A DNA stretch of 18,020 bases. Source: Abditibacteriaceae bacterium (GTDB lineage: Bacteria; Armatimonadota; Abditibacteriia; Abditibacteriales; Abditibacteriaceae). Below, one piece after another: positions 5,121 to 17,985 of the stretch. The stretch lies in NCBI GenBank assembly GCA_031372065.1, contig JANMKN010000096.1, positions 1-18,020 of the forward strand, written 5' to 3'. A program made the position numbers and the translations under genes. The notes beneath the pieces were generated by a model, which had not been told where the DNA came from, searched no databases, and saw only the letters and a list, made by a program, of their open reading frames with translations. How positions within the stretch are numbered: the first letter of the stretch is position 1; the number at the start of each line of letters is the position of its first letter.

Positions 5121-5777
5121 ATGAATAATCGCCGTCAGAAAATGCCATCGCCGCTGGAAATTGTCGCGGATTTTGTGGCTTTCCCCTTACGCGCTTTGTT
5201 CTTGGAAACCGAAGGCAGATTTGGACTTTCATCCTTGCGCGAAGAGCGCATGAGAATTGTTTGGCGTTTTTGTCTCGGACGGGTTTTAGATGTTGGGTGC
5301 GGGCCGGGCAATCTCTTTATTCGGGAATTTATCGGCACCCAAAACGGCGTGGGCGTGGACTGTTTTGCCTACGAAGGCGTGGAAAATGTGGTGCCCGATT
5401 TAACGCATTTGCCCTTTGAAAACGAAACTTTCGATACCGTGACTCTCATCGCTGTCGGCGGTCATATTCCTCGTTCACAGCGCGCCGCCGAGTTTCAAGA
5501 ATTAGCGCGCGTTTTGAAAAACGGAGGCCGTTTGGTAATGACCGAAGGTGAACCGGTTACGCAATATCTGGTGCATCAGTGGGTTTTCTGGCTGCACAAA
5601 CAACGCGGCACGCAAGATATGGATTCCGAGCGCGGCATGGAAAACGACGAAGAATTTTGTATGCCGCGAGGCGAATTATTAGGTTATCTCAACACGCCGC
5701 CGCTGCGTTTTAAGCGCCGCAAACGCTTTATGTGGCGCTTGAATAATGTTTATGTGGCGCAAAAAGAATCTTCCTGA
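5121..5777 (+). CDS. Class I SAM-dependent methyltransferase
   Basis: 'VLDVGCGPG' motif I, 'LPFENETFDTV', 'ELARVLKNGGRL'. The true start could be the ATG at 5142. Confidence 0.85.
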   Translation: MNNRRQKMPSPLEIVADFVAFPLRALFLETEGRFGLSSLREERMRIVWRFCLGRVLDVGCGPGNLFIREFIGTQNGVGVDCFAYEGVENVVPDLTHLPFENETFDTVTLIAVGGHIPRSQRAAEFQELARVLKNGGRLVMTEGEPVTQYLVHQWVFWLHKQRGTQDMDSERGMENDEEFCMPRGELLGYLNTPPLRFKRRKRFMWRLNNVYVAQKESS

Positions 5778-6823
5778 TGCTGTCTTTGAAATTTGCAAAT
5801 TATGACGAAAGTTGGCGCGCCCGCTGGGACGAATTTGCCGATTTACACGGCACGCTGTTTCACAAAATATCATGGTTGCAAACTTTACAAAAAAGTTTTG
5901 GTTATCAGGCGCGGCATCAATTGATTTTAGATGATAAAAACGAAATCGCTGCCGTTTTGCCACTCTGCATCGCGCGCAATTTGCGCGGTCAACGCGTCGG
6001 CGTTTCGTTACCCTTCGTGCATTTTTTGAATCCGGCGTGCCGCAGTGAAAAAACGCGCGATTTCCTCATTGCACAGTGCCCGAAATTGAGCCGCGATTTA
6101 CATCTGCACTATCTGGAACTGCGTTTGGATTATGAATTATGCGAAACGGTTGAAGCGGGCCGCAATAATGAAAATGTAACCTTTGTTTTGCCTTTGGACG
6201 GCGATGAAAAGGCTGTTTTGGCTTTAGCTTCGGGTGATAACCGGCGTCGCACGCGCCTTGTCTATCAAGGCGACTGGTTCGAAACGTCGCTTGATAAAGC
6301 GCGATTGCCGGAGTTTTACGAAGTCTATCGCAGGCGCCAGAAACAATTGGGTTCGCCCGCGCCTGCGTTGTCGTTTTTTGCCAATATTAGGGGGAAACTG
6401 CCGGAGAATGTGACGCTTCTGACGGTTGCAGATAAGCGACTGCAAAAAGTTGTGGGCGGAATGTTTTTATTGGCCGATGGCGCCACGTTGTATTATCATT
6501 GGGGTGCCACGCGGGTGGAATATAATGCCTATCATCTCAATCATTTTATGTATCGCGAAGCGATTCTCTTCTCGCTGCAAAAGCGATTTCGATTTTTCGA
6601 TTTAGGCCGTTCGCCGCGAAGCGAGCAGGGCGGAACTTACCGCTTTAAAGAGCAGTTTGGCGCGGAGCCGAAATCGCTTTTTTATTATCGTTTCGGCCAA
6701 CAGCCGCAGGATTGGCACAACGCGCAAAAAACGATGAAACCATTGATCGAAATCTGGAAAAAAACGCCAGCGTTTTTGACGGATGGCGCCGGGCATTATT
6801 TAATCGGGCGCGCTTTGCCCTAA
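5777..6823 (+). CDS. FemAB-like GNAT-fold acyl/aminoacyltransferase
   Basis: 'WDEF..GTLFHKISW..FGY', 'YLELR', 'LGSP', 'FDLGRS..GTYRFKEQFGAEP' resemble FemAB-related polysaccharide-locus proteins. TGATG overlap with the upstream gene. Confidence 0.82.
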   Translation: MLSLKFANYDESWRARWDEFADLHGTLFHKISWLQTLQKSFGYQARHQLILDDKNEIAAVLPLCIARNLRGQRVGVSLPFVHFLNPACRSEKTRDFLIAQCPKLSRDLHLHYLELRLDYELCETVEAGRNNENVTFVLPLDGDEKAVLALASGDNRRRTRLVYQGDWFETSLDKARLPEFYEVYRRRQKQLGSPAPALSFFANIRGKLPENVTLLTVADKRLQKVVGGMFLLADGATLYYHWGATRVEYNAYHLNHFMYREAILFSLQKRFRFFDLGRSPRSEQGGTYRFKEQFGAEPKSLFYYRFGQQPQDWHNAQKTMKPLIEIWKKTPAFLTDGAGHYLIGRALP

Positions 6824-6826
6824 CCT

Positions 6827-7492
6827 ATGAATCAAGAAGAATTGCGCTGTTTTTATGATGCAGAAGCGCGGCGTTGGGGCGATTCGGCGCGCACCGCACA
6901 ATATGTCAGCGGGGGCAATTTTCGCTTGTTGCAGAGGCGTCTTTTGGCGTGGACACGCAGCGCGCAACCATTAAAGATTTTAGATGCCGGTTGCGGAACA
7001 GGATTATTCAGCGCGCCTTTGACACGCCGCCATGAAGTGCATGGCGTGGATTTTTCTGATGAAAGTTTGCGTTTCGCTGCGCGGCATGGATTGAAAATTC
7101 GCAATGCCGACTTGAGGGCTTTGCCTTACGAAAATGAAGCCTTCGATTTAGTCTTGTGCATCGGCGTTTGGCAACATTTAGCGGAATGCGAGCCGGTTTT
7201 AATTGAGCTGTCGCGCGTTACGCGGCGCGGCGGTTTGGTCGTGGTCTCCACCATCAATCGCCATTCGGTTCAGCGCCGCGTTTTATCACACTTGTGGCAC
7301 CCCGCCGTGGCTGAGACTCTGCGTGCCTATAACGCGCCCGAATTGCAAAACGATTTTGAAAAATGCGCTTTGCAGGACATCGAATTTTTGAATTTATATT
7401 ATCCTTTGCCCTACGTTACACGGCGGCGAAAAACTAATTGGTTGCAAGATTTTTTCAGTTCGACGGTGGCGATTCGGGGCCGCAAACTTTAA
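6827..7492 (+). CDS. Class I SAM-dependent methyltransferase
   Basis: 'ILDAGCGTG', 'VHGVDFS', 'LPYENEAFDLV', 'ELSRVTRRGG'. Confidence 0.88.
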   Translation: MNQEELRCFYDAEARRWGDSARTAQYVSGGNFRLLQRRLLAWTRSAQPLKILDAGCGTGLFSAPLTRRHEVHGVDFSDESLRFAARHGLKIRNADLRALPYENEAFDLVLCIGVWQHLAECEPVLIELSRVTRRGGLVVVSTINRHSVQRRVLSHLWHPAVAETLRAYNAPELQNDFEKCALQDIEFLNLYYPLPYVTRRRKTNWLQDFFSSTVAIRGRKL

Positions 7493-7507
7493 GTTCAACT
7501 CTCGGTT

Positions 7508-8311
7508 GTGAGCGATTTGTTTTTTACTTTCGATGTCGAGGTTTACGCGCCGCTGCGCCATGACCGCGTTTTTTTGCGCGCTCAGGGCGAGGTATGGCAA
7601 AGCGTGTTGGAGCATTTACAGCGCGCCGCCGTGCGCACTACATTTTTCGTAACCGGTGAGTTTGTGGAAACCTATCCGGTGTTATTTGATGAGATGGTGC
7701 AAAGCGGACATGAAATCGCCTCGCATACCATGACGCACCGGCCTTATTTTTCGATTGGCGACAAAGAATTTGAAAATGAAATCGCGCGCAGCAAAAATTT
7801 TCTCGAAGACGTTTCGCAAACATCAGTTAGCGGTTTTCGCGCGCCGTTGGGGCAAATTCCCTCACACTTGGCGGCGCTTTTGAAAAAGCACGGTTACCAT
7901 TATGATTCTTCGGTTGCCGCCACGCATATTCCCGGCCATTTTCAGGCTTTAGGCGCGCCGCAGCGGATTTATCACGCCTCGTTAGAAGAAGTGCGGCGCG
8001 AAGATGAAAATTCTAATTTCTGGGAAATTCCCATCGCTGTCACTCCAAAAATTCCGCTGCCTTACGGCGGATTTTTTTTGTCGTTTATCGCGCCTGTGGC
8101 ATGGCGTTTTCCGCAAACGCAAAAACAATCGCACGTTATGTTTTCGCATCCGCACGATTTTATAGACATGAGAAAACAGGCTGGTTGTTATGCGTGGGAT
8201 AGATTCAAAATTACGCGCAATAATTGGCGAATGCTGGCGCATTTTTGTCGGCAACGGCAAGGCAGCGATGCGCGCTTATGCCAATTGCCCAAAGGCGAAT
8301 CATGTTTCTAA
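7508..8311 (+). CDS. Polysaccharide deacetylase (CE4/NodB-like)
   Basis: 'FTFDVE', 'TTFFVTG', 'GHEIASHTMTH', 'GFRAP', 'YDSS', 'EIPI..P..GG'. GTG start. Confidence 0.88.
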   Translation: MSDLFFTFDVEVYAPLRHDRVFLRAQGEVWQSVLEHLQRAAVRTTFFVTGEFVETYPVLFDEMVQSGHEIASHTMTHRPYFSIGDKEFENEIARSKNFLEDVSQTSVSGFRAPLGQIPSHLAALLKKHGYHYDSSVAATHIPGHFQALGAPQRIYHASLEEVRREDENSNFWEIPIAVTPKIPLPYGGFFLSFIAPVAWRFPQTQKQSHVMFSHPHDFIDMRKQAGCYAWDRFKITRNNWRMLAHFCRQRQGSDARLCQLPKGESCF

Positions 8312-9006
8312 CACCATTCGCCGCGCTGCCAATTCAAGTGCGACAAGTGTTGGGATTGCCGCGCGCCACAGCCCGCAAATTAGCCGCTGAATTGGCCGCG
8401 CTGCAATGTGATTTTTCGTTCGCGCAACTCGAAGAAACAGCAATTCCGTCTTACACGCATCGGTTGGCGCCCATTCGTTATTTGTTCTTGCGGCGTGTGC
8501 GCGTGGCACTTGATTTAACACGCAAAAATTTGCCCACGCGCAGTGAAATTTTAGATTTCGGTTGCGGTGCCGGGTTGATGACAATCGCTTTAAAACAGCA
8601 TGGTTTCAAGCCTGTTCGCTGCGATATTCGCCCGCAATTTTGCGCGCCTTCGGCACAGGCAATGCCTGGGGCCCAAATCGAAAACTTTGCCGAATTAAAA
8701 CGCTTTCGCGGCTGCGTGGCGTTGGATGTTTTGGAACATTTGAGCGAAAACGAATTACGCGACTTTGCCGCCGGTTTCGCGCCAGATGCTGTGTTGATTG
8801 TATCGGGGCCGACGGAGAATTTTCTTTATCAAATCGGACGACGCGTGGCCGGATTTAAAGGCGGTTATCATCAGCGCGATGTATTTCAAATTTTGCAATT
8901 CCTGCAAAGCGTTGGGTGGAATTTAGAATCGCCGCCGCGTTATATTTTTTCGCGCTGGTTTTGTCCGGCGTTTGTCGTTGTGGCTCTGCACAAAGGCGCG
9001 CTTTGA
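8302..9006 (+). CDS. Class I SAM-dependent methyltransferase
   Basis: 'ILDFGCGAG', 'ALDVLEHL', 'VSGPTEN'. Start placed at ATG 8302, which overlaps the deacetylase end, rather than at 8224. Confidence 0.82.
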   Translation: MFLTPFAALPIQVRQVLGLPRATARKLAAELAALQCDFSFAQLEETAIPSYTHRLAPIRYLFLRRVRVALDLTRKNLPTRSEILDFGCGAGLMTIALKQHGFKPVRCDIRPQFCAPSAQAMPGAQIENFAELKRFRGCVALDVLEHLSENELRDFAAGFAPDAVLIVSGPTENFLYQIGRRVAGFKGGYHQRDVFQILQFLQSVGWNLESPPRYIFSRWFCPAFVVVALHKGAL

Positions 9007-9026
9007 ATCGGGTAAAATTTCAGGCG

Positions 9027-10010
9027 ATGGAACACGAAAAAGCGGCGCGCATCGCCGTTGTCATTCCCTGCTACCAAGTGCGCGACACAATTTTGCAAGT
9101 CATCGCTGGAATCGGCCCGCAGGTCCAGGCGATTTATGTAGTGGACGATGGCTGCCCACAAGAAAGCGGGGCGCACGTCGAAGCCAATTGCCGCGATCCG
9201 CGCGTGGTGGTTTTGCGCTGCGAGAAAAATTTGGGCGTGGGCGGCGCGATGAGCAAAGGCTTCCGACAAGCGTTGCAAGACGGCGCTTTTATCGTGGTGA
9301 AAATGGATGGCGATGGGCAAATGGACGCTTCGTTTTTGTCGCGCTTGGTGCAGCCACTCTTGTCGGGCATGGCCGATTACGCCAAAGGCAACCGCTTTGC
9401 CGCGTCCTATCAAATGCGCCTGCAATTGCAACAACAAATGCCGCTTTTGCGGCGTTTTGGCAACAGCGTTTTATCGTTCGTGCATAAATCCATGTCGGGC
9501 TATTGGAATATCATGGACCCGACCAACGGTTACAGCGCCATTCATCGCGTGGCCTTGGAAAACATTGATCTCGAACGCGTGGCGCGCGGCTATTTTTTCG
9601 AGAACGATATGTTGTTTCAACTGAGCCTGATCGGTGCCGTAGTGCGCGATGTCCCGATGCCGGCGCGTTATGGCGAAGTGAGCAGCAACTTGCAAGTGCG
9701 TCGCGTGTTGTGGGAGTTTCCGCCGCTGATATTGAATCGCTTTTGCAAGCGTTTGTTTTACAAATATTTCATCAACGATTTCAATGTCGCGTCACTGGAA
9801 ATGCTGATTGGACTGCCTTTAGTTGCGGCGGGCACGCTGTATGGCAGTTACCGCTGGATGGGCGGCATTTTGTATAGCTGGGAAAACACATCGGGCACCG
9901 TGATGTTATGCGCTTTGCCGATTATTTTAGGTTTTCAATTGCTGCTTTCGGCGGTTAGCTACGACATCAACAACGTGCCTAAAGTGCCACTGAGCAGCGG
10001 ACTCGAATAA
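9027..10010 (+). CDS. GT2 glycosyltransferase, polyprenol-phosphate glycosyltransferase (DPM/GtrB-like) with C-terminal TM helices
   Basis: 'IAVVIPCY', 'VVDDG', 'NLGVGGA', DxD motif in 'KMDGDGQ', 'KGNRF', 'DPTNGY'. Two hydrophobic C-terminal segments. Start placed at ATG 9027, after the upstream stop. Confidence 0.9.
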   Translation: MEHEKAARIAVVIPCYQVRDTILQVIAGIGPQVQAIYVVDDGCPQESGAHVEANCRDPRVVVLRCEKNLGVGGAMSKGFRQALQDGAFIVVKMDGDGQMDASFLSRLVQPLLSGMADYAKGNRFAASYQMRLQLQQQMPLLRRFGNSVLSFVHKSMSGYWNIMDPTNGYSAIHRVALENIDLERVARGYFFENDMLFQLSLIGAVVRDVPMPARYGEVSSNLQVRRVLWEFPPLILNRFCKRLFYKYFINDFNVASLEMLIGLPLVAAGTLYGSYRWMGGILYSWENTSGTVMLCALPIILGFQLLLSAVSYDINNVPKVPLSSGLE

Positions 10011-10014
10011 ACGA

Positions 10015-11223
10015 TTGCAAACCAACTTTATGCGCGATTATTTGCGAAAATTCATTCAAAATTCGTGGGCCGTTTTTATTTTTATTTTGTTATTCGATGG
10101 CGCTTTGCTATGGAAAACAGGCCCGGCAGCGATTGCCGCCGATGCGAAATGGTATGCTGATGCGGCGCATCAACTGGTGGCGTTGCAATTTAATTTTTCA
10201 ACTTATTTTTCCCAAATCCAAAGCCCGATTTCGCCGGTTTTTTATATCACTTTCGTGACGCTCGTTGCCTTATGCCAAAAGCTGCTCGGCGCTTATTGGC
10301 TGCAAGGCGTTTTGCTGGTGAATGTGGGCGCTTTGGCTTGTAGCGGAACGCTCGTTGTGCGCTTGGTATTGCGATTAACGAAGCAAAAAAGCGCGGCCTT
10401 TATCGCTTTGCTTTTGTTTTTATCGTGCCTCGAAATGTTCAATTGGGCGCGCTTTGTTTTGACCGATACGATTTTTATGGCGCTATCGTGCGCGCTATTT
10501 TATAGTCTTGCGCGCGCCGTCACCGCTGAAGTGCCCCAAACGGCCAAAAAACACGCGTTGCTTGCGCTGGTTTTGCTTTTTTTAGCGCCTTTTAGCCGTC
10601 CGACGGGCGTAATTTTGTTTCCGATTGTCGCAGTTTTGTATTTCGCCCGCATCGTAGAAAAAGCGAGGATAATAAATCGTCGGCCACTGCTGTTGGCCGT
10701 TATCGGATTCTTATTTTTTATCAGCGTGGCCGATGCGTATTTGATGCAAGACATTCGGCGCTGGCCGCTGCCCGGCGCGGAAGCGTTGCGCTTGCCGTAT
10801 TATGCGAAGTTGTATCACGGAGGCGTGATGATAAATGCGCGGCCCGAAACGTATGCCGCGCCACCGCAATCGCTGTTTGAGTTTTTGGCGCTAAATGCGC
10901 GCCGCTTGGTTTATTTTTTCGCGTTTTGGTCGTCGAAGGGCTACAGTCGCGGGCACAATTTGGCGCTGGCCGTTTTCTTTGTGCCGGTGTATTTTCTATC
11001 GTTAAAGGCGCTCATAAACGGGCTACGGCGATGCAGCAATTTAGCGCATGAAGCGGAAACGGCGCTACTCATGGCGTGTGTATTTGTATTGGGCTTTGCG
11101 TTTTTCCACGCGCATACCGAAATTGATTACGATTGGCGTTATCGCTTGCCGGTTCTGCCGCCGCTTATTTTTATCGCGGCGCTCGGTTTTGCCTCGCGCG
11201 GGGCCGTTTTGAAAGCACAATAG
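10015..11223 (+). CDS. Multi-pass membrane protein, probable GT-C fold glycosyltransferase (PMT/ArnT-like)
   Basis: Many hydrophobic helices. 'DAKWY' in the first loop, 'LTDTIF', 'SRPTG' and C-terminal 'WRYRLP' are typical of GT-C proteins. Adjacent to the GT2. Start may be ATG 10030. Confidence 0.68.
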   Translation: MQTNFMRDYLRKFIQNSWAVFIFILLFDGALLWKTGPAAIAADAKWYADAAHQLVALQFNFSTYFSQIQSPISPVFYITFVTLVALCQKLLGAYWLQGVLLVNVGALACSGTLVVRLVLRLTKQKSAAFIALLLFLSCLEMFNWARFVLTDTIFMALSCALFYSLARAVTAEVPQTAKKHALLALVLLFLAPFSRPTGVILFPIVAVLYFARIVEKARIINRRPLLLAVIGFLFFISVADAYLMQDIRRWPLPGAEALRLPYYAKLYHGGVMINARPETYAAPPQSLFEFLALNARRLVYFFAFWSSKGYSRGHNLALAVFFVPVYFLSLKALINGLRRCSNLAHEAETALLMACVFVLGFAFFHAHTEIDYDWRYRLPVLPPLIFIAALGFASRGAVLKAQ

Positions 11224-11295: not shown

Positions 11296-13971
11296 ATGAA
11301 GAATTCTTACGTTGTTTTAACAGCCGGCGCTTTATTAAGCGTCTTTTCCTTGCGTGTGGCCGCTTTGGGTGCCGGGACAGAAAAAAAATATGTTGCGCTG
11401 GCCCCGGTGTCGAAAACAGTGCCGAAAAAAACTGTATCGAAAGCTTCTTCCAAGCCAACGGCGCAGGAAATCAGAGCGGCTAATGAAAAAGCGATTCACA
11501 AGTTTCTTGATGATCGCTGTTTGAGTTGCCACGACACCGAAACGCAAAAAGGCGGGCTGGACTTAGAAAAATTGAAGTTCGATTTGAACGAGGCGCGCAC
11601 TTTTGAAATGTGGGTGAAAATCCACGACAAAGTGCGCGATGGGCAAATGCCGCCACCCAAAAAAGAGCAGCCGACGCCGCAAGAACGCGCCGCTTTTAAA
11701 AATCGCCTCGCGGGCGCTTTAATTTCAGCCCAAAACCAAACATAGGGCCTCAGTGGGCGCGCGGTGTGGCGCCGCTTGAATCACTACGAATACGAAAATA
11801 CCGTGCGCGATTTGCTGAGTTCTCCGTGGCTGCAACTGAAAAATATGTTGCCCGAAGATGGCGAAGCGTTTCGTTTTAACAAGGTCGGCGAGGCGTTAGA
11901 TGTGTCGCACGTCCAACTTTCGCGTTACCTGCAAGCCGCCGATTATGCCTTGCGCGAAGTGATGGCAAACAGCCTGACGCAGCCGGAAAAAACCGTCAGA
12001 AAGTTCTACACGCGCGATGAAGGCGCCTTTGCCGGGGCGTATGATGTCGGCCCGGAAGTGCGCTCGACGTTTCCGGTTGTCGGTTCCAAAGAAGACCAAG
12101 CACACCTCAAGCCGCCTTTGAGCGTGGGCGACAAAGACCCTAAGGTGCGTGAAGAAGAAGGCGTCGGCGTGGTTCTTAGCACCTACGAACCAACCGAAAT
12201 TCGCTGGTCAAAGTTCCGCGCGCCGCGCGCTGGTCATTATAAATTGCGCTTTATGACCAACACGGTTTGGGTCGGCCCGAAAAACGAAAAACAATGGTGG
12301 GTGCCCAATTACGCCAATTTGTCGGAAGGACGGCGCAACGAACCAATTCTGATTTATTCAGATCGCCCGCCGCGCCTTTTGCGCTATTTGGGCAGTTTTG
12401 AAGCGACTCCTGAAGCCAAAGCCAACGAATTGGATGTATGGCTGCAAGCGGGCGAAAGCATCCGGCCCGATGCGGTGCGCTTTTTTCGCCCGCGTCCCGG
12501 TTCGATGCGCAATCCGTGGGCGACGCCCGAAGGTCAGCCTGCCGTTTCGTTTCGTTGGATGGAAGCCGAAGGCCCGCTGTTCGATTCGTGGCCCACGCCC
12601 GCGCAAAAATTGCTCTTTGGCGATTTGCCATTGAAACAAAACGAGAAAGACAAAACCGTGGAAGTTGTTTCCACAAATCCACAAGCCGACGCCGAAAAAT
12701 TGTTGCGCGGTTTCCTGCAAAAAGTCTCGCGCCGCCCCATAAATGAAGCGGATGTCAAGCGGTTTTTGCCGGTTATCAGCAAAGCGCTGGCTGATGGCTA
12801 CTCGTTTCAAGATTCGATGATTGCGGCGTATTCGGCGGTTTTGTGTTCGCCGTCGTTTTTGTATCTCGAAGAAAAACCGGGGCCGCTCGATTCGTATGCT
12901 TTAGCTTCGCGCTTGTCGTATTTGCTGTGGAATACGGCGCCGGACGAGGCGCTTTTGAAGGTAGCGGCCAGCGACCAACTGCGCAAGCCCGATGTTTTGC
13001 GGGCGCAAACCAATCGCTTGTTGGACGATAACCGCTCGCAGTTTTTTGTGGATGCGTTTTTGGATTACTGGCTTGATTTGCGCAAAGTCAACAATAACGA
13101 CGCTGATGTGACGCTGTATCCCGATTATCAACTGGACGATTTATTGGTGAATTCGTCGGTGGACGAAACGCACGCTTTTTTCTCCGAACTTTTGAAAAAG
13201 AATTTGCCGGTGAAAAATATCGTGTCGTCGGATTTTGCAATGCTTAACGAGCGCCTCGGCACCCATTATGGCATTGCTGATGTGGTTGGCAACGCCATTC
13301 GCCGTGTGTCACTGGCGCCCGATTCGATGCGCGGCGGTTTGATGACGCAGGCCAGCGTTCTGAAAGTGACGGCCAACGGCACCACCACTTCGCCGGTTTT
13401 GCGTGGCGCGTGGATTATGGAGCGCATTTTGGGTGAGCCGCCACCGCCGCCGCCGCCCAGCGTGCCCGCAGTTGAACCCGACACGCGCGGCGCTCATACT
13501 ATCCGTGAATTGCTGGACAAGCATCGCTCTATCGAAACCTGCGCCAATTGCCATCGCTACATTGACCCGGCAGGTTTTGCTTTGGAATCCTTCGATGTCA
13601 TGGGCGGCTGGCGCGAGAATTATCGCGCGGTTGCCAACGGCGACGGCAAGTTTCAAAAAATCGAAGGCTATGGGCACAACGGCGATGTTTTCAAGATTTT
13701 CGCAGGTTTGCCGGTAGATGCCACCGGACAACTTCCCACAGGCGAAGCGTTCAAAGATGTGCGCGAATTGAAAAAACTGCTTTGCCAAGATGATCGCAAA
13801 TTGGCGCGCAACGTGGCGAAGCAAATGACCATCTATGCAACGGGCGCGCCGGTTCGCTTTGCGGATCGTCCGAAACTCGAAGCTATTCTCGACCGCGCCA
13901 AAGCCAGCGATTATGGCGTGCGCGACTTACTGCACGAAATCGTGCAAAGCGACTTGTTTTTGAAGAAGTAG
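11296..13971 (+). pseudogene. PSCyt1 + DUF1587/DUF1595/DUF1592/DUF1588/DUF1585 cytochrome c protein interrupted by an in-frame TAG at 11743-11745
   Basis: ORFs 11296..11745 and 11764..13971 share a frame (offset 468). Read-through gives ..[30 protein letters not shown], a DUF1587-like motif. Also signal peptide, 'CLSCH', 'LASRLSYLLWNTAPD', 'TSPVLRGAWI', 'CANCH..IDPAGFALESFD'. Confidence 0.8.
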
Positions 13972-14030: not shown

Positions 14031-15398
14031 ATGAAAAAATCTGCTCCTCCCTCTGTTTCGATGCCGAATGTCACCACGGGCCGCGCGATTCATCGTCGCC
14101 GCTTTTTGCAGGGCGCGGGTGTGCTGCTTGGTTTGCCGATTCTCGACGCGATGGTGCCCGCTTTCGGGCGCGCGGCGTGGGGCGCGGAAAAGAACGAGGC
14201 GGTGGCTGCCACCGAAGGCACGCCGCCGCGTCGCATTTTGGGCATTTGCAACAACTTGGGTTTGGTGCCGGATCGTTTTTTCCCCGATGAAAAATCCGTC
14301 GGACGCGGCTATAAATTGTCGCCGTATTTGCAGAATTTGGAAGACCACCGCGACGATTTCACGGTTTTTAGCGGCGTTTCGCACCCTGATGTGGACGGCG
14401 GGCATCCGGCGGACAACTGTTTTCTCACCGCAGCGCCGCATCCGGGGCGCGGCGGCTTTCGCAACACCATTTCGCTCGACCAATACGCCGCCGAGCGACT
14501 CGGCCACCTAACGCGTTTTCCTTCGATGACTTTGGGCGTCAACGTCTCGCAAGGTCAGCGCAGCTTATCGTGGACGGGTGGCGGTGTGCTGATTCCGTGC
14601 GAAGAAAAAGCCTCCGAGGTTTATAAACGCTTGTTTTTGCAGGGCACCAAAGAAGAAGTCGCCGCGCAAGTGCGCCGCTTGCAGTTGGGGCAGAGCATCA
14701 TGGATTCCGTCGCCGGGCAAGCCAAAGATTTGCAACGCAGCGTCGGCCCGCGTGACCGCGAACGTCTCGACCAATATTTCACCGGCGTGCGCGAACTCGA
14801 ACAGCGCATGACCATGTCGCAGGAATGGGAAAACAAGCCGAAGCCGAAAGTGACGGCGCCGATGCCAATTGACCCGCCCAGCCCACGCGCTTACATGGAC
14901 AAAGTGAAGCTGATGTATGACATGACGCGCCTCGCTTTTGAAACCGATTCGTGCCGTTTCATTACTTTGCTGCTCGATAGCGTCAGTTCGCCCGCGCTGG
15001 AAATTGATGGCAAAAACCTCTCGGACAGCTATCATAACCTGTCGCATCACGGAAAATCGAAAGAAAAACTCGACGAGTTAAATACCATTGACGAGTTGCA
15101 CATGAAGATGCTCGGCGACCTGTTTGGCGGCTTGAAAGGCGTCAAAGAAGGCAACGAAAACCTGCTGGAACGCAGCATGATTCTTTACGGCAGCAACCTC
15201 GGCAACGCCAACACGCACGTCACCACCAACCTGCCGATTATCTTCGGCGGCGGCGGCTTCAAACACGGCCAGCACCTCGCTTTTAACCGCGAATACAACT
15301 ACCCGCTGCCCAACCTGTTTGTCAGCATGATTCAACGCCTCGGCATCGAATCCGACAAATTCGCGTCAAGCACCGGCACCATGCGCGGTTTGGCGTAA
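14031..15398 (+). CDS. DUF1552 (HXXSHH) family protein, Tat-exported
   Basis: '[21 protein letters not shown]' Tat-like N-terminus, 'ISLDQ', '[12 protein letters not shown]', the HXXSHH motif 'YHNLSHHG', '[22 protein letters not shown]'. Usual partner of DUF1592/1588 genes. Start could be 14061. Confidence 0.92.
15334..15398 (+). repeat. Repeat copy 0: the live 3' end of the DUF1552 gene
   Basis: AACGCCTCGGCATCGAATCCGACAAATTCGCGTCAAGCACCGGCACCATGCGCGGTTTGGCGTAA, encoding [20 protein letters not shown]. Confidence 0.95.
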
Positions 15399-15425
15399 TC
15401 AAACGCCGAAAGGTGAGAAGTAAAA

Positions 15426-15803
15426 ATGAATCTGAAGGCCAAAATTGTCTTGTGTATTAGTGTGAGCGTAGCATTGGCTTGCTACATGGTTTTTCTCTAC
15501 TCGCCCTATGCGCATCTCACGAGTCTTCAAAGGTGTTGGTTAGGCCTTACTCCAGCCTTGTTCGTCAGTTACGGCCTGATATTCATATGGAAGTCTAAAG
15601 AACAAAGAAAAGGGTCCTTTGTGAGTGCCGTAATAGGAGCCATTATGTTCTTTTTGCCTCTCGCAATGCGCACTTGGGGAAATCCTTCGCCGGAGCAAAT
15701 GGAAAAAGTGACTTTCGCGATTTTCTTGTTGCCACTGGCCTACTTTTGGTTTCAAAAGCGAAAGCAGAAGGCAAAATTTCCTGACAGTCCTGTCGTGCAG
15801 TGA
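15426..15803 (+). CDS. Cargo ORF 1: hypothetical ~4-TM membrane protein
   Basis: 125 aa, four hydrophobic segments, basic C-terminal tail. AAGGTGAG lies upstream. Fills the space between repeat copies 0 and 1. Confidence 0.7.
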   Translation: MNLKAKIVLCISVSVALACYMVFLYSPYAHLTSLQRCWLGLTPALFVSYGLIFIWKSKEQRKGSFVSAVIGAIMFFLPLAMRTWGNPSPEQMEKVTFAIFLLPLAYFWFQKRKQKAKFPDSPVVQ

Positions 15804-15812
15804 GAAATTTCA

Positions 15813-15862
15813 AATCCAACAAGTTCGCCAGCAGCACCGGCACCATGCGCGGACTGGCGTAA
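15813..15862 (+). repeat. Repeat copy 1 of the DUF1552 3' end (50 nt)
   Basis: AATCCAACAAGTTCGCCAGCAGCACCGGCACCATGCGCGGACTGGCGTAA ([15 protein letters not shown]). Confidence 0.95.
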
Positions 15863-15885
15863 GAAGTTAGGTTTACGTCCCTGAT

Positions 15886-16293
15886 GTGAAGCGATTTAAA
15901 CACCTTTCGCGGCGACGCAAACAGTTTTTGGCTGTTATTGCGCTGGTGTTCGTTGTTGCTTGCGTCTCTGCGGGTAAGAAACTCGCAGAATTACGGGATG
16001 AATTAATGGTAGATAATTACGCAAGCTACCTAAAGTGCGTGTATTTGCCAGAACAGAGACACTTAACCGGAAAATGGCCTTCCGATTTGAGTGGTCTGCC
16101 TCAGTTTGTTAAAAATGAGAAAACAATGAGCGCCGACCAAAACTTAGACGATTTCATCTTGCGATTTCACGCTGACAATTATGAGGGGTTTGAACCAGTG
16201 AAAATCCAAAAAGATGGCGGGAACGAAATTTATACTTTCAACATTCGCTTGAAAGGCCGCAAAAAGAAGTTTCAGTGGATGGCTACCAATTAA
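15886..16293 (+). CDS. Cargo ORF 2: hypothetical protein with an N-terminal membrane anchor
   Basis: 135 aa, GTG start. Basic N-terminus then 'FLAVIALVFVVACVSA'. The TAA stop overlaps the start of repeat copy 2. Confidence 0.68.
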   Translation: MKRFKHLSRRRKQFLAVIALVFVVACVSAGKKLAELRDELMVDNYASYLKCVYLPEQRHLTGKWPSDLSGLPQFVKNEKTMSADQNLDDFILRFHADNYEGFEPVKIQKDGGNEIYTFNIRLKGRKKKFQWMATN

Positions 16294-16356
16294 CGCCTCG
16301 GCATCGAATCCGACAAATTCGCCAGCAGCACCGGCACCATGCGCGGCTTGGCGTAA
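16292..16356 (+). repeat. Repeat copy 2 of the DUF1552 3' end (65 nt)
   Basis: 60/65 identical to 15334-15398. All 5 differences are synonymous in the DUF1552 frame (GCG TCA to GCC AGC; GGT to GGC). Confidence 0.95.
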
Positions 16357-16367
16357 AGGAATTTAAT

Positions 16368-16838
16368 TTGTTAGAGCGTAGTCAAAAGCAAAATCAGACA
16401 CGCCGAAATAGTTGGCTGTTTGCTGCTCTAACTTGCGCTATTGTTTGGCGGTTGCCAGCCATTGAAGAGTGGCGTGCTGATCTCGCTCAAGACCGCCTGT
16501 ATGTGCGAAATGAACTTTCGGAGCCAATCGCGAAGACTCGTATTTTATTTTATGGCTATGGTGGAGGAGGCGACCCAGAGTTTCCAAACCATGAGCTTGT
16601 GTTTAGAAATGTGCCGGGCAACGATGCACGCTGGCAACACTTCGAGCCTAAGTGGGGCAATGGCGACTCAGGAAGATATTTTAAAATAGAGGGAGTTACA
16701 GCCAGCGGCAGGAAAATTGGTAATGCGAAAGTTTTTGAGCAACCAGAAACTCATGGCCCAATTCTCGATTTAGGATTAGGCGCAAGATTTTATATTACGG
16801 TTAGGTCGGATGGCATACTTGATGTGCAGCCAAATTGA
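16368..16838 (+). CDS. Cargo ORF 3: hypothetical protein with an N-terminal hydrophobic segment
   Basis: Start re-placed at TTG 16368, 7 nt after AAGGA (16356-16360), giving 156 aa MLERSQKQNQTRRNSWLFAALTCAIVW.. The track's 16275 start reads through the repeat out of frame. Confidence 0.62.
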   Translation: MLERSQKQNQTRRNSWLFAALTCAIVWRLPAIEEWRADLAQDRLYVRNELSEPIAKTRILFYGYGGGGDPEFPNHELVFRNVPGNDARWQHFEPKWGNGDSGRYFKIEGVTASGRKIGNAKVFEQPETHGPILDLGLGARFYITVRSDGILDVQPN

Positions 16839-16841
16839 AGG

Positions 16842-16883
16842 AAATTCGCCAGCAGCACCGGCACCATGCGCGGACTGGCGTGA
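16842..16883 (+). repeat. Repeat copy 3 of the DUF1552 3' end (42 nt)
   Basis: AAATTCGCCAGCAGCACCGGCACCATGCGCGGACTGGCGTGA ([13 protein letters not shown]), 40/42 identical to copy 1. Confidence 0.95.
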
Positions 16884-16926
16884 GAATACGAAGCGACCTG
16901 CATAGATTGCGGACGGCATCATAAAA

Positions 16927-17361
16927 ATGCGTTTTTCGTTGTTAGATCTCCTTATTGGAATCGGATGTGGAACCGCGCCGGGAGCGTGTGTAGGCTTTTT
17001 TATTGCGGGTTTATCAGGTCATAAACATTTGGCACTGGTGATGGCTCTATCACTTGCTTTAGTTAGTTATTTTCTAATTACGCCCTCAATTTACCGGTGG
17101 TTTCATTTGCGCTCGTTGGTAGTTCCGCGTTGTCCTCACTGTCACGAAAAGAACCGCTGGTATTGGTATGAGAAGGCCAAGGCTGATTGGCCGCACGACG
17201 TAATCATGTGCGCGACTTGTAAGAATACTCTGGAGCTTTGGTATGAAGTTCCTCAAGACGCAGAAATTTCCACAACTATGCCGAGTTTTCAGCTTTTATG
17301 GCCTCAATCTTGGGGACGCTGGCGCATGATTGCTGACAAGAAACAAGACCATAGCTCATGA
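16927..17361 (+). CDS. Cargo ORF 4: two TM helices plus a probable zinc-ribbon domain
   Basis: 144 aa, two hydrophobic N-terminal segments, then CPHC..CATC. Confidence 0.68.
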   Translation: MRFSLLDLLIGIGCGTAPGACVGFFIAGLSGHKHLALVMALSLALVSYFLITPSIYRWFHLRSLVVPRCPHCHEKNRWYWYEKAKADWPHDVIMCATCKNTLELWYEVPQDAEISTTMPSFQLLWPQSWGRWRMIADKKQDHSS

Positions 17362-17373
17362 CTAATCAAACCA

Positions 17374-17409
17374 AAGCCCGCGCTTTTGAAAAAATGCGCA
17401 GGCTTTTTT
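17374..17409 (+). terminator. Intrinsic terminator, imperfect copy of 17914-17950
   Basis: AAGCCCGCGC-loop-GCGCAGGCTT plus a T-tract, with one stem mismatch. Confidence 0.75.
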
Positions 17410-17492: not shown

Positions 17493-17894
17493 GTGAAAAA
17501 AACGCTGCTGTCTTGCCTTCTATGCCTTGCTATCTTCGGAGTAACAGCTTACAATCGGGCCGCGCCTGCTAAAGAAACCACCACGAAACCGCAAGCGAGT
17601 TCACTGCTGCGTAAGCGTGAAATGGCGGCACATAACGCTTGGGTTATGCAGAGTTACATGGAAATGAGAAAAATCAGGCTCGGTATGACACGAGCGCAGT
17701 TGCTCAAGGTTTTTAGCACCGAAGGTGGACTATCCACCCGCACGCAAAGAACTTACGTTTACCACGATTGCCCCAATATAAAAGTGGATGTTAAGTTCCG
17801 GCCCGTCGGAAAAATTGATCGTTTTTGGGAAGGGCCACAAGACGTAATTGTCAGTATTTCCAAGCCCTATTTAGCTTTAACGATTCTTGATTGA
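17493..17894 (+). CDS. Hypothetical secreted protein, with a BamE/SmpA-like 'GMT' motif
   Basis: GGAGAGG Shine-Dalgarno before GTG. Signal peptide MKKTLLSCLLCLAIFG. 'IRLGMTRAQLLKVF' motif. Confidence 0.75.
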   Translation: MKKTLLSCLLCLAIFGVTAYNRAAPAKETTTKPQASSLLRKREMAAHNAWVMQSYMEMRKIRLGMTRAQLLKVFSTEGGLSTRTQRTYVYHDCPNIKVDVKFRPVGKIDRFWEGPQDVIVSISKPYLALTILD

Positions 17895-17913
17895 TTCCAA
17901 CCAACGCAAACCC

Positions 17914-17950
17914 AAGCCCGCGCTTTTTGAATAAAGGCGCGGGCTTTTTT
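17914..17950 (+). terminator. Intrinsic terminator
   Basis: Perfect stem AAGCCCGCGC / GCGCGGGCTT followed by a T-tract. Confidence 0.85.
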
Positions 17951-17985
17951 GTGCCAGAACCCCCTGCCCAGAGGGCGCCCGCCGG

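Follow-up and report, generated by a model that had tools for sequence, protein, structure and literature searches.

Repeated DUF1552 gene ends and stacked small cargo genes in an Abditibacteriaceae genome: a case for homology-anchored insertion

How a gene comes to be followed by three further copies of its own 3′ end, each trailed by a different small gene, is the question raised by contig JANMKN010000096.1 of an Abditibacteriaceae bacterium from sediment (GenBank assembly GCA_031372065.1). The whole stretch analyzed here, called the window, comprises 18,020 nucleotides (nt) and is the entire contig C67 of a draft metagenome assembly (6.14 Mb in 410 contigs, 94% complete, labelled G000); it stops 126 nt past the last of five low-GC open reading frames (ORFs), and all negative results for the window refer to that span. 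An earlier note on this DNA took the locus for a gene-capture array anchored on a DUF1552 gene, in which each unit of gene end plus cargo entered at the live end, rebuilt the gene and pushed the older end downstream. Our analysis keeps this direction of entry and gives up the tie to DUF1552: the array is probably the stacked product of an integrase-free, homology-anchored additive insertion that acts genome-wide, and what it records is most likely general recombination, not the work of a dedicated capture system.

Pfam identifies a DUF1592-type/DUF1552 gene pair, of which the anchor is the second member. The anchor's end and the units behind it are listed below, with the basis of each entry in parentheses.

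14031..15398, forward strand: DUF1552 (HXXSHH) gene, 455 aa, the anchor, GC 0.57 (ORF, Pfam, GC)
15334..15398, forward strand: live 3′ end, the part that recurs downstream (sequence comparison)
15426..15803, forward strand: cargo 1, 125-aa hydrophobic ORFan with a Shine-Dalgarno-like sequence 5′ of it, GC 0.45 (ORF list, GC)
15810..15862, forward strand: tail copy 1, 53 nt, 83% identical to the live end, beginning 6 nt past the cargo 1 stop (alignment)
15886..16293, forward strand: cargo 2, 135-aa ORFan, GC 0.43 (ORF list)
16292..16356, forward strand: tail copy 2, 65 nt, 92% identical, overlapping the cargo 2 stop by 2 nt (alignment)
16368..16838, forward strand: cargo 3, 156 aa, TTG start at 16368, N-terminal hydrophobic stretch, two relatives (46 and 65%) (ORF, homology search)
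16842..16883, forward strand: tail copy 3, 42 nt, 83-85% identical, TGA instead of TAA, beginning 3 nt past the cargo 3 stop (alignment)
16927..17361, forward strand: cargo 4, 144 aa, two hydrophobic stretches, two CxxC motifs, four relatives (45-57%), no tail copy 3′ of it (homology search)

The four tails terminate at 15398, 15862, 16356 and 16883, with spacings of 464, 494 and 527 nt, and the earlier description of repeated ends with unrelated, co-oriented ORFs of 125-156 aa proved accurate, as did its coordinates for copies 2 and 3; copy 1 begins at 15810 and not, as first given, at 15813. Every copy terminates at the stop codon with no similarity beyond it; the last 13 residues encoded are identical in all four tails, which also share an invariant 20-nt core. 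An overlapping 20-mer, searched with up to two mismatches, matches only these four sites in the 6.14-Mb genome (one extra match appears at three mismatches), and a repeat dispersed genome-wide was rejected. The gaps from cargo stop to next copy are 6, −2 and 3 nt, within the 10 nt previously claimed. The cargo has a GC content of 0.43-0.47, versus 0.57 for DUF1552, and the four co-oriented ORFs show no mutual relationship (best E 1.2). Homology searches returned no real relative of cargo 1 (one identical 52-aa fragment, two weak repeat-protein matches and Pfam matches below cut-off) and none of cargo 2 except itself; cargo 3 retrieved only unnamed, weakly recognized clusters in the Atlas search, and cargo 4 had one match in 300 other genomes of the phylum, without a tail repeat nearby.

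An assembly artefact or simple tandem duplication might produce such a pattern, and the draft metagenome assembly with its 410 contigs leaves room for the former. Against an artefact, contigs from two samples of one study (X1 and X2, where one run may be the source sample) span five junctions without a mismatch.

Live end/cargo 1 junction: bridged by X2, 0 mismatches
Cargo 1/copy 1 junction: bridged by X1, 0 mismatches
Copy 1/cargo 2/copy 2: bridged by X1, 0 mismatches
Cargo 3/copy 3 junction: bridged by X2, 0 mismatches
Copy 3/cargo 4 junction: bridged by X2, 0 mismatches

No contig among the pieces listed spans the copy 2/cargo 3 junction, and the public-run data, which consist of contigs only, contain no joint of a circular cassette. 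The listing of public runs that match the window includes no RNA run. Joints that skip cargo (15319-16292 and 15356-16842) were considered as empty sites and discarded; they carry foreign letters between the two sides or have low support, and were read as the ends of other organisms or of paralogues. Tandem duplication has a parallel at a homologous locus on a metagenome contig (L043:3060-4400), where the DUF1552 end is duplicated together with downstream DNA; this duplication is longer, extends beyond the stop and is of a different type. Both explanations are opposed by the synonymous alleles that distinguish the copies from each other, by the unrelated cargo (cargo paralogy was rejected in the window, and there is one related pair among 37 cargo stretches genome-wide) and by the same pattern in the related genomes G001, G003, G012 and G039. 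We regard an artefact or simple duplication as extremely improbable.

Judged from their codons, the tail copies are the ends of different alleles and were functional gene ends until recently. Across the last 14 codons the window copies differ from the live end at 5, 3 and 5 codons, and all 13 differences are synonymous, where random change would give 25%; they include a serine codon switched between TCA and AGC and a stop switched between TAA and TGA. At its left end copy 1 has two further differing codons, both non-synonymous. Genome-wide, 154 of 252 differing codons (0.61) are synonymous, versus 0.35-0.43 expected for a decaying exact duplicate (p at most 6e-9). At an anchor on contig C368 the copy encodes the C-terminus of the sister species G002, which the live end does not, and one copy in G003 is 2 of 60 nt away from the G000 live end and 6 of 60 from its own.

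These comparisons bear on a rival account in which a long target is duplicated exactly at a break, by staggered cuts or one-ended repair, such that both repeats are the same at first and no replacement end comes with the cargo. The accessible text on one described class of insertions reports empty sites and repeats above 30 bp that frequently overlap starts or stops (PMC2853133). Some copies in G000 are near-identical to the live end with non-synonymous differences (C343, 65 of 67 nt), a minority of the copies could be exact duplicates, and the live end is nearer to relatives in 17 of 22 comparisons. The synonymous excess, the 13 of 13 in the window with its serine and stop switches, the C368 copy that carries a sister species' protein end, and the lack of restriction-modification families in the window cargo and the 38 other cargo ORFs all argue against exact duplication, which we consider quite unlikely.

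The search for other genes with repeated 3′ ends that the earlier note proposed was run on G000 by comparing the last 30 nt of each of 3082 host-like genes with downstream DNA, using internal offsets, the opposite strand and upstream DNA as controls. A short downstream copy was detected for 30 of the 3082 genes (about 1%). Among the controls, eight offsets within the same 3082 genes (−30 to −360) gave 1-6 each, with 0 at −300, the opposite strand gave 1, and upstream DNA gave 6 of 2817; the excess at gene ends is significant against the highest control (Fisher p 7e-5). Intergenic windows beyond the stop also recur often (23-34), which we would attribute to terminators and dispersed repeats. 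Curation of 49 candidates, 12 of which were removed as paralogue ends, tandem repeats or too short, left 37 copies at 33 anchors. The copies are 20-230 nt long (median 45; 31 of 37 above 30 nt), and the cargo between gene and copy measures 147-3966 nt (median 624), with a GC content below that of the anchor in 30 of 37 and with 24 co-oriented versus 8 oppositely oriented ORFs of at least 100 aa. Where a cargo stop precedes a copy, the gap is at most 12 nt in 12 of 25, versus 29% of co-oriented gaps (p 0.03).

The anchors are mostly unrelated to each other and include methionine synthase, amidase, acetate kinase, pseudouridine synthase, sulfatase and ABC transporter genes, three DUF1501 genes and two DUF1552 genes. 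DUF1501 ends are recurrent acceptors in three genomes of the genus (G000 C116, C118 and C397; G003:C141; G001:C118). Most of the 38 cargo ORFs outside the window lack a Pfam family; those found include Fic, SMI1/KNR4, Imm5, MazF-like, ankyrin, WD40, a subtilase with an AAA ATPase and one IS200-like transposase, with immunity-like families in 2 of 38. The largest cargo (L084:1927-5751, 4 kb) is the subtilase and AAA ATPase pair, presumably a defence-type pairing. A second four-tail array (L087, contig C203) lies behind a 331-aa regulator-like gene and has three copies of 27-43 nt, with 15 synonymous and 1 non-synonymous codon differences; its anchor was not found in 26 family genomes. There is also a rarer mirror class, in which gene starts are copied upstream, with about six cases clear by eye among 25 raw matches versus 15 control matches. 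These cases, on C78, C225, C305, C364, C393 and C407 of G000, place the copied start 0.2-1.8 kb upstream.

The same scar also occurs in relatives. In G003, of the same genus as G000, 278 genes in 595 kb were sampled and three have tail copies, one of which (L224, G003:C70, gene end 21339) is a five-tail array with copies of 114, 60, 87 and 87 nt, two of them sharing one 87-nt left boundary, behind what we take to be a glycoside hydrolase family 4 gene; no copy follows its G000 orthologue. In G001 a DUF1501 paralogue is followed by a 93-nt copy (known by coordinates only), and G039 has what we take to be a PIN-like pair and a 70-nt copy behind a DUF1552 paralogue. Tail copies were found at 1 of 201 genes in G012, 0 of 237 in G006, 0 of 212 in G002 (one paralogue pair dropped) and 0 of 224 in G005, so that the rate is 33/3360 in G000 and G003 versus 1/874 in the four other relatives (p 0.005, for kin that are not independent). 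In DUF1552 neighbourhoods of other taxa, 0 of 126 genes had a tail copy.

Anchors are many, and some are recurrent in the genus. G003 has its own copy with different cargo at three of eight shared anchors (p 3e-4 versus the G003 background, for hand-chosen anchors and mixed methods), and at these three the copy lengths in G003 and G000 are 72 vs 43, 82 vs 46 and at least 58 vs 48 nt. Abditibacteriaceae or Abditibacteriota records contain the closest DUF1552 orthologues, at 78-87% identity. The five nearest each have a different neighbour, as viewed by eye in the ORFs behind them, with none of the window cargo and no significant tail copy. A putative decayed copy behind the G003 orthologue, 3 nt past the cargo stop, scored 27 against a shuffle maximum of 30 and was not counted. 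Among homologous DUF1552 loci (sets of 29 and 43, partly overlapping, 2 incomplete), a tail-limited copy occurs only in L009. Cargo varies among relatives as predicted, behind DUF1552 orthologues and at shared anchors alike. With 33 mostly unrelated anchors in G000 and five nearest orthologues lacking a significant copy, a system specific to DUF1552, as originally proposed, was rejected.

The direction of the events can be read at three other anchors with empty sites in relatives: methionine synthase (G001), an oxidoreductase (G002) and an ABC transporter (G002). At each, the empty-site flank continues into the DNA that follows the copy in G000, aligned within about 13 nt of the copy's stop, and new DNA therefore entered on the gene side. 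Together with the C368 copy that matches a sister C-terminus, these sites bear out the proposed entry at the live end, with a replacement end supplied and the old end pushed downstream. No decay gradient was seen along the window array or the G003 array, and the strict time order of units that had been envisaged need not hold, since multi-unit blocks could have arrived together.

We looked for an enzyme that could account for the insertions. A Pfam scan of 17 window proteins found no integrase or transposase, in agreement with the earlier note. Of the genome's recombinase matches (11 tyrosine, 4 serine), none is on the window contig; the 33 anchors outnumber these 15, and a single anchor (C61) shares a contig with one, about 10 kb off. 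The 38 cargo ORFs include no integrase and one IS200-like transposase. No common junction motif was found, the tail repeats contain no inverted repeat of at least 14 nt (by a listing of inverted repeats), and the window has no tRNA or Rfam element. Copy boundaries vary at a single anchor (42/53/65 nt in the window, 60/87/87/114 nt in the G003 array). An RNA-templated route and end joining by Ku were set aside, as neither a reverse transcriptase nor Ku was found in the 94% complete G000. The competence genes ComEC and DprA are encoded. The many targets, variable left boundaries, allelic ends and mirror class, with no motif and no linked recombinase, point to homology and not to a site-specific enzyme.

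One alternative is that of decayed site-specific elements, that is, integrase-bearing islands that accreted at gene ends and lost their integrase or were served by one in trans, as in cis-mobilizable elements (CIMEs). Replacement ends carried on attP also differ synonymously. The recurrent anchors in G003, the two G003 copies with a common left boundary at 87 nt and the 15 recombinase matches in the genome would fit such elements. So would the geometry, which is the same as in the tandem accretion of CIMEs at the rpsI, rpmG, fda and rplL 3′ ends, where integrase-less cargo is likewise stacked at a protein-gene end between att-like repeats (PMC7563491; review on integrative and conjugative elements (ICEs), PMC5812530). 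As far as the accessible parts of these sources go, however, classical CIMEs descend from ICEs or integrative and mobilizable elements, use few integrase targets and measure 1.2-13 kb, whereas here a median cargo of about 0.6 kb is found at 33 anchors of one genome, with variable boundaries, no junction motif, no integrase remnant in the 38 cargo ORFs and no parent element seen. We consider this origin unlikely.

In the homology-anchored process that we favour, conspecific or congeneric DNA carrying the 3′ part of a gene and the small gene that follows would enter the cell, probably by transformation, and recombine into the resident gene. Its non-homologous end would then be joined, by a chemistry that we infer, to the chromosome 20-230 nt 5′ of the resident stop, and the product, as seen at these loci, is a gene with the incoming end, the cargo, a stump of the resident end and the ancestral flank. 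From this geometry, the unit would have target-gene homology on both sides of its cargo, and a double crossover, or a pop-out followed by single-crossover re-entry, could add it to any orthologue with the downstream DNA kept. The first event at an anchor would need one illegitimate joint and later additions only ordinary recombination; because of its two-sided homology a unit could be added by plain recombination, which would explain both stacking and anchor recurrence. Selection would favour 3′ ends, since insertion there would spare the gene and co-oriented cargo would be served by the gene's promoter; it would also favour stumps that are short and diverged, as long identical ones would pop out. 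The mirror class at gene starts is expected of a mechanism that is indifferent to stops.

Several observations weigh against this process. Neither a donor molecule nor a circle nor an intermediate came to light. At 101 loci with orthologues of five G000 anchors, each with 100 nt to 1.5 kb of downstream sequence, there is no copy, and no cargo was found to recur in identical form at one anchor in any two genomes. In the 17 of 22 non-independent comparisons mentioned above it is the live end, not the copy, that is nearer to the sister species, a pattern that fits conspecific donors with copy decay and fits plain target duplication too. The model does not predict that cargo stops and copies lie so close together (12 of 25 gaps within 12 nt), and it leaves the two G003 copies with one boundary unexplained. 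Homology-facilitated illegitimate recombination (HFIR) is rare, and RecA acts poorly on stumps of 20-45 nt with 75-90% identity, which weakens the proposed stacking step. In the accessible text of its report, moreover, HFIR displaces or deletes recipient DNA and does not duplicate it (PMC5361080).

The clustering of copies could instead reflect an undescribed host or mobile factor, such as a promiscuous recombinase or nuclease, that shuttles gene-tail cassettes in the manner of an integron with many att sites. Two three-copy arrays in one genome (0.0006 expected under Poisson scatter), the five-tail array in G003, the higher rate in G000 and G003 than in the four other relatives (with the same caveat on kinship) and the trimming of cargo near its stop would suit such a factor; yet no candidate gene and no cis motif emerged, boundaries vary, gene starts are copied too, and self-reinforcing homology and a small number of harmless operon-end sites explain the clustering equally well. 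We rate it very unlikely. A bolder reading, which we hold to be doubtful, is that any permissive gene tail in the genus is a landing site and that units of a tail plus one gene circulate as self-targeting, integrase-free cassettes (circles or short linear pieces). They would constitute a distributed, integron-like route for ORFans into operons at hundreds of potential sites, possibly with an unknown factor that sets the joint behind the cargo stop.

The surroundings of the array include the upstream partner of the anchor, two terminator-like hairpins and the fifth low-GC ORF.

11764..13971, forward strand: DUF1587/1595/1592/1588/1585 gene, upstream partner of the anchor (Pfam)
17367..17409, forward strand: terminator-like hairpin with a T run that closes the array, repeated at 17907-17952 (repeat and hairpin scan)
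17493..17894, forward strand: fifth low-GC ORF, 133 aa, flanked by the two terminator-like repeats (ORF list, GC, Pfam)
17907..17952, forward strand: second terminator-like hairpin, 89% identical to the first across 46 nt (repeat and hairpin scan)

Shine-Dalgarno-like sequences precede cargo 1 and cargo 3, and the first long hairpin comes after cargo 4; given these features and the common orientation, cargo 1-4 may plausibly be transcribed together with the operon. Three weak terminator-like sites are listed on the forward strand within the array. The fifth ORF is possibly a further unit, produced by the same process anchored on the terminator. The end of the contig (17956-18020) is a short repeat, presumably of the repetitive extragenic palindromic type, with dozens of genomic copies that often form inverted pairs about 130 nt apart. 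Between a DUF1553/DUF1501 pair and the DUF1592/DUF1552 pair (5121-11223) lie methyltransferase, GNAT, deacetylase and glycosyltransferase genes. A planctomycete cytochrome c domain, elsewhere often fused to DUF1587/DUF1592, forms its own ORF here (11296-11745) directly upstream of the DUF1587/DUF1592 ORF; this is possibly a split gene or an assembly slip.

How does the array compare with known systems? In the way it would work it is akin to sequential displacement of the HFIR type, and in appearance to insertion with long target duplication, to CIME accretion and to additive islands. Integrons are arrays of small, single-gene, co-oriented and promoter-poor cargo with entry at one end. The window resembles them in these respects, and differs from them in having no PF00589 match (IntI) on the contig and repeats that are coding tails, apparently not a common attC family. 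In HFIR, recipient DNA is lost at the joint; unlike this, the empty sites here show duplication and not loss, and of the host prerequisites for HFIR, ComEC and DprA are encoded (genes alone). The remaining comparisons hold for the accessible portions of the papers cited. Displacement arrays attributed to HFIR occur among the type VI secretion immunity genes of V. cholerae (PMC5361080) and as C-terminal displacement in rhs genes, for which homologous recombination with circles was the model (PMC2935791). They share with our loci the downstream displacement of older modules, core fragments of variable length, the lack of an integrase and probably an upstream homology anchor, which the allelic replacement ends would fit, but they exchange a variable toxin tip at dedicated conflict loci, whereas here ordinary metabolic genes serve as anchors and the anchor protein is rebuilt unchanged; the four window tails, with their 13 identical residues, have no variable toxin tip.

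Alteromonas additive flexible genomic islands gain cassettes at a hotspot, each with a downstream repeat of an anchor segment (PMC4898812); their anchors are mostly tRNA or transfer-messenger RNA genes, in contrast to the tRNA-free window. Another close described class is insertion with long target duplication (Furuta, Abe, Kobayashi 2010, PMC2853133), which occurs mainly in competent species. An insert without mobility genes lies there between direct repeats of about 30-400 bp that often extend across a start or stop, and the empty site has a single copy; these inserts carry restriction-modification genes, and short repeats are listed as identical at 44-47 of 45-47 bp. Our loci agree in repeats above 30 nt (31 of 37), empty sites at three other anchors (none was seen for DUF1552) and inserts without an integrase, and differ in mostly ORFan cargo, allelic repeats that end at the stop, stacked units and a frequency of about 1% of genes. 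The suggestion that this is not a described system was consequently too strong, since integrase-free insertion with long duplications is known for restriction-modification cargo, albeit, in what is accessible of that paper, not as genome-wide stacked tails. A literature search that covered subscription papers thinly found no account of genome-wide, stacked, allelic gene-tail copies.

The entry of single foreign genes into bacterial chromosomes without mobility functions is an old open question. Here such genes leave behind a scar that can be counted, namely a short allelic copy of the tail of the adjacent gene; a simple scan detects it at about 1% of genes, gives the direction of each event and reveals recurrent anchors. 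The scar makes rates, donors and the dependence on recA and competence testable across genomes, and it implies that arrays at gene ends do not necessarily point to a hidden integrase.

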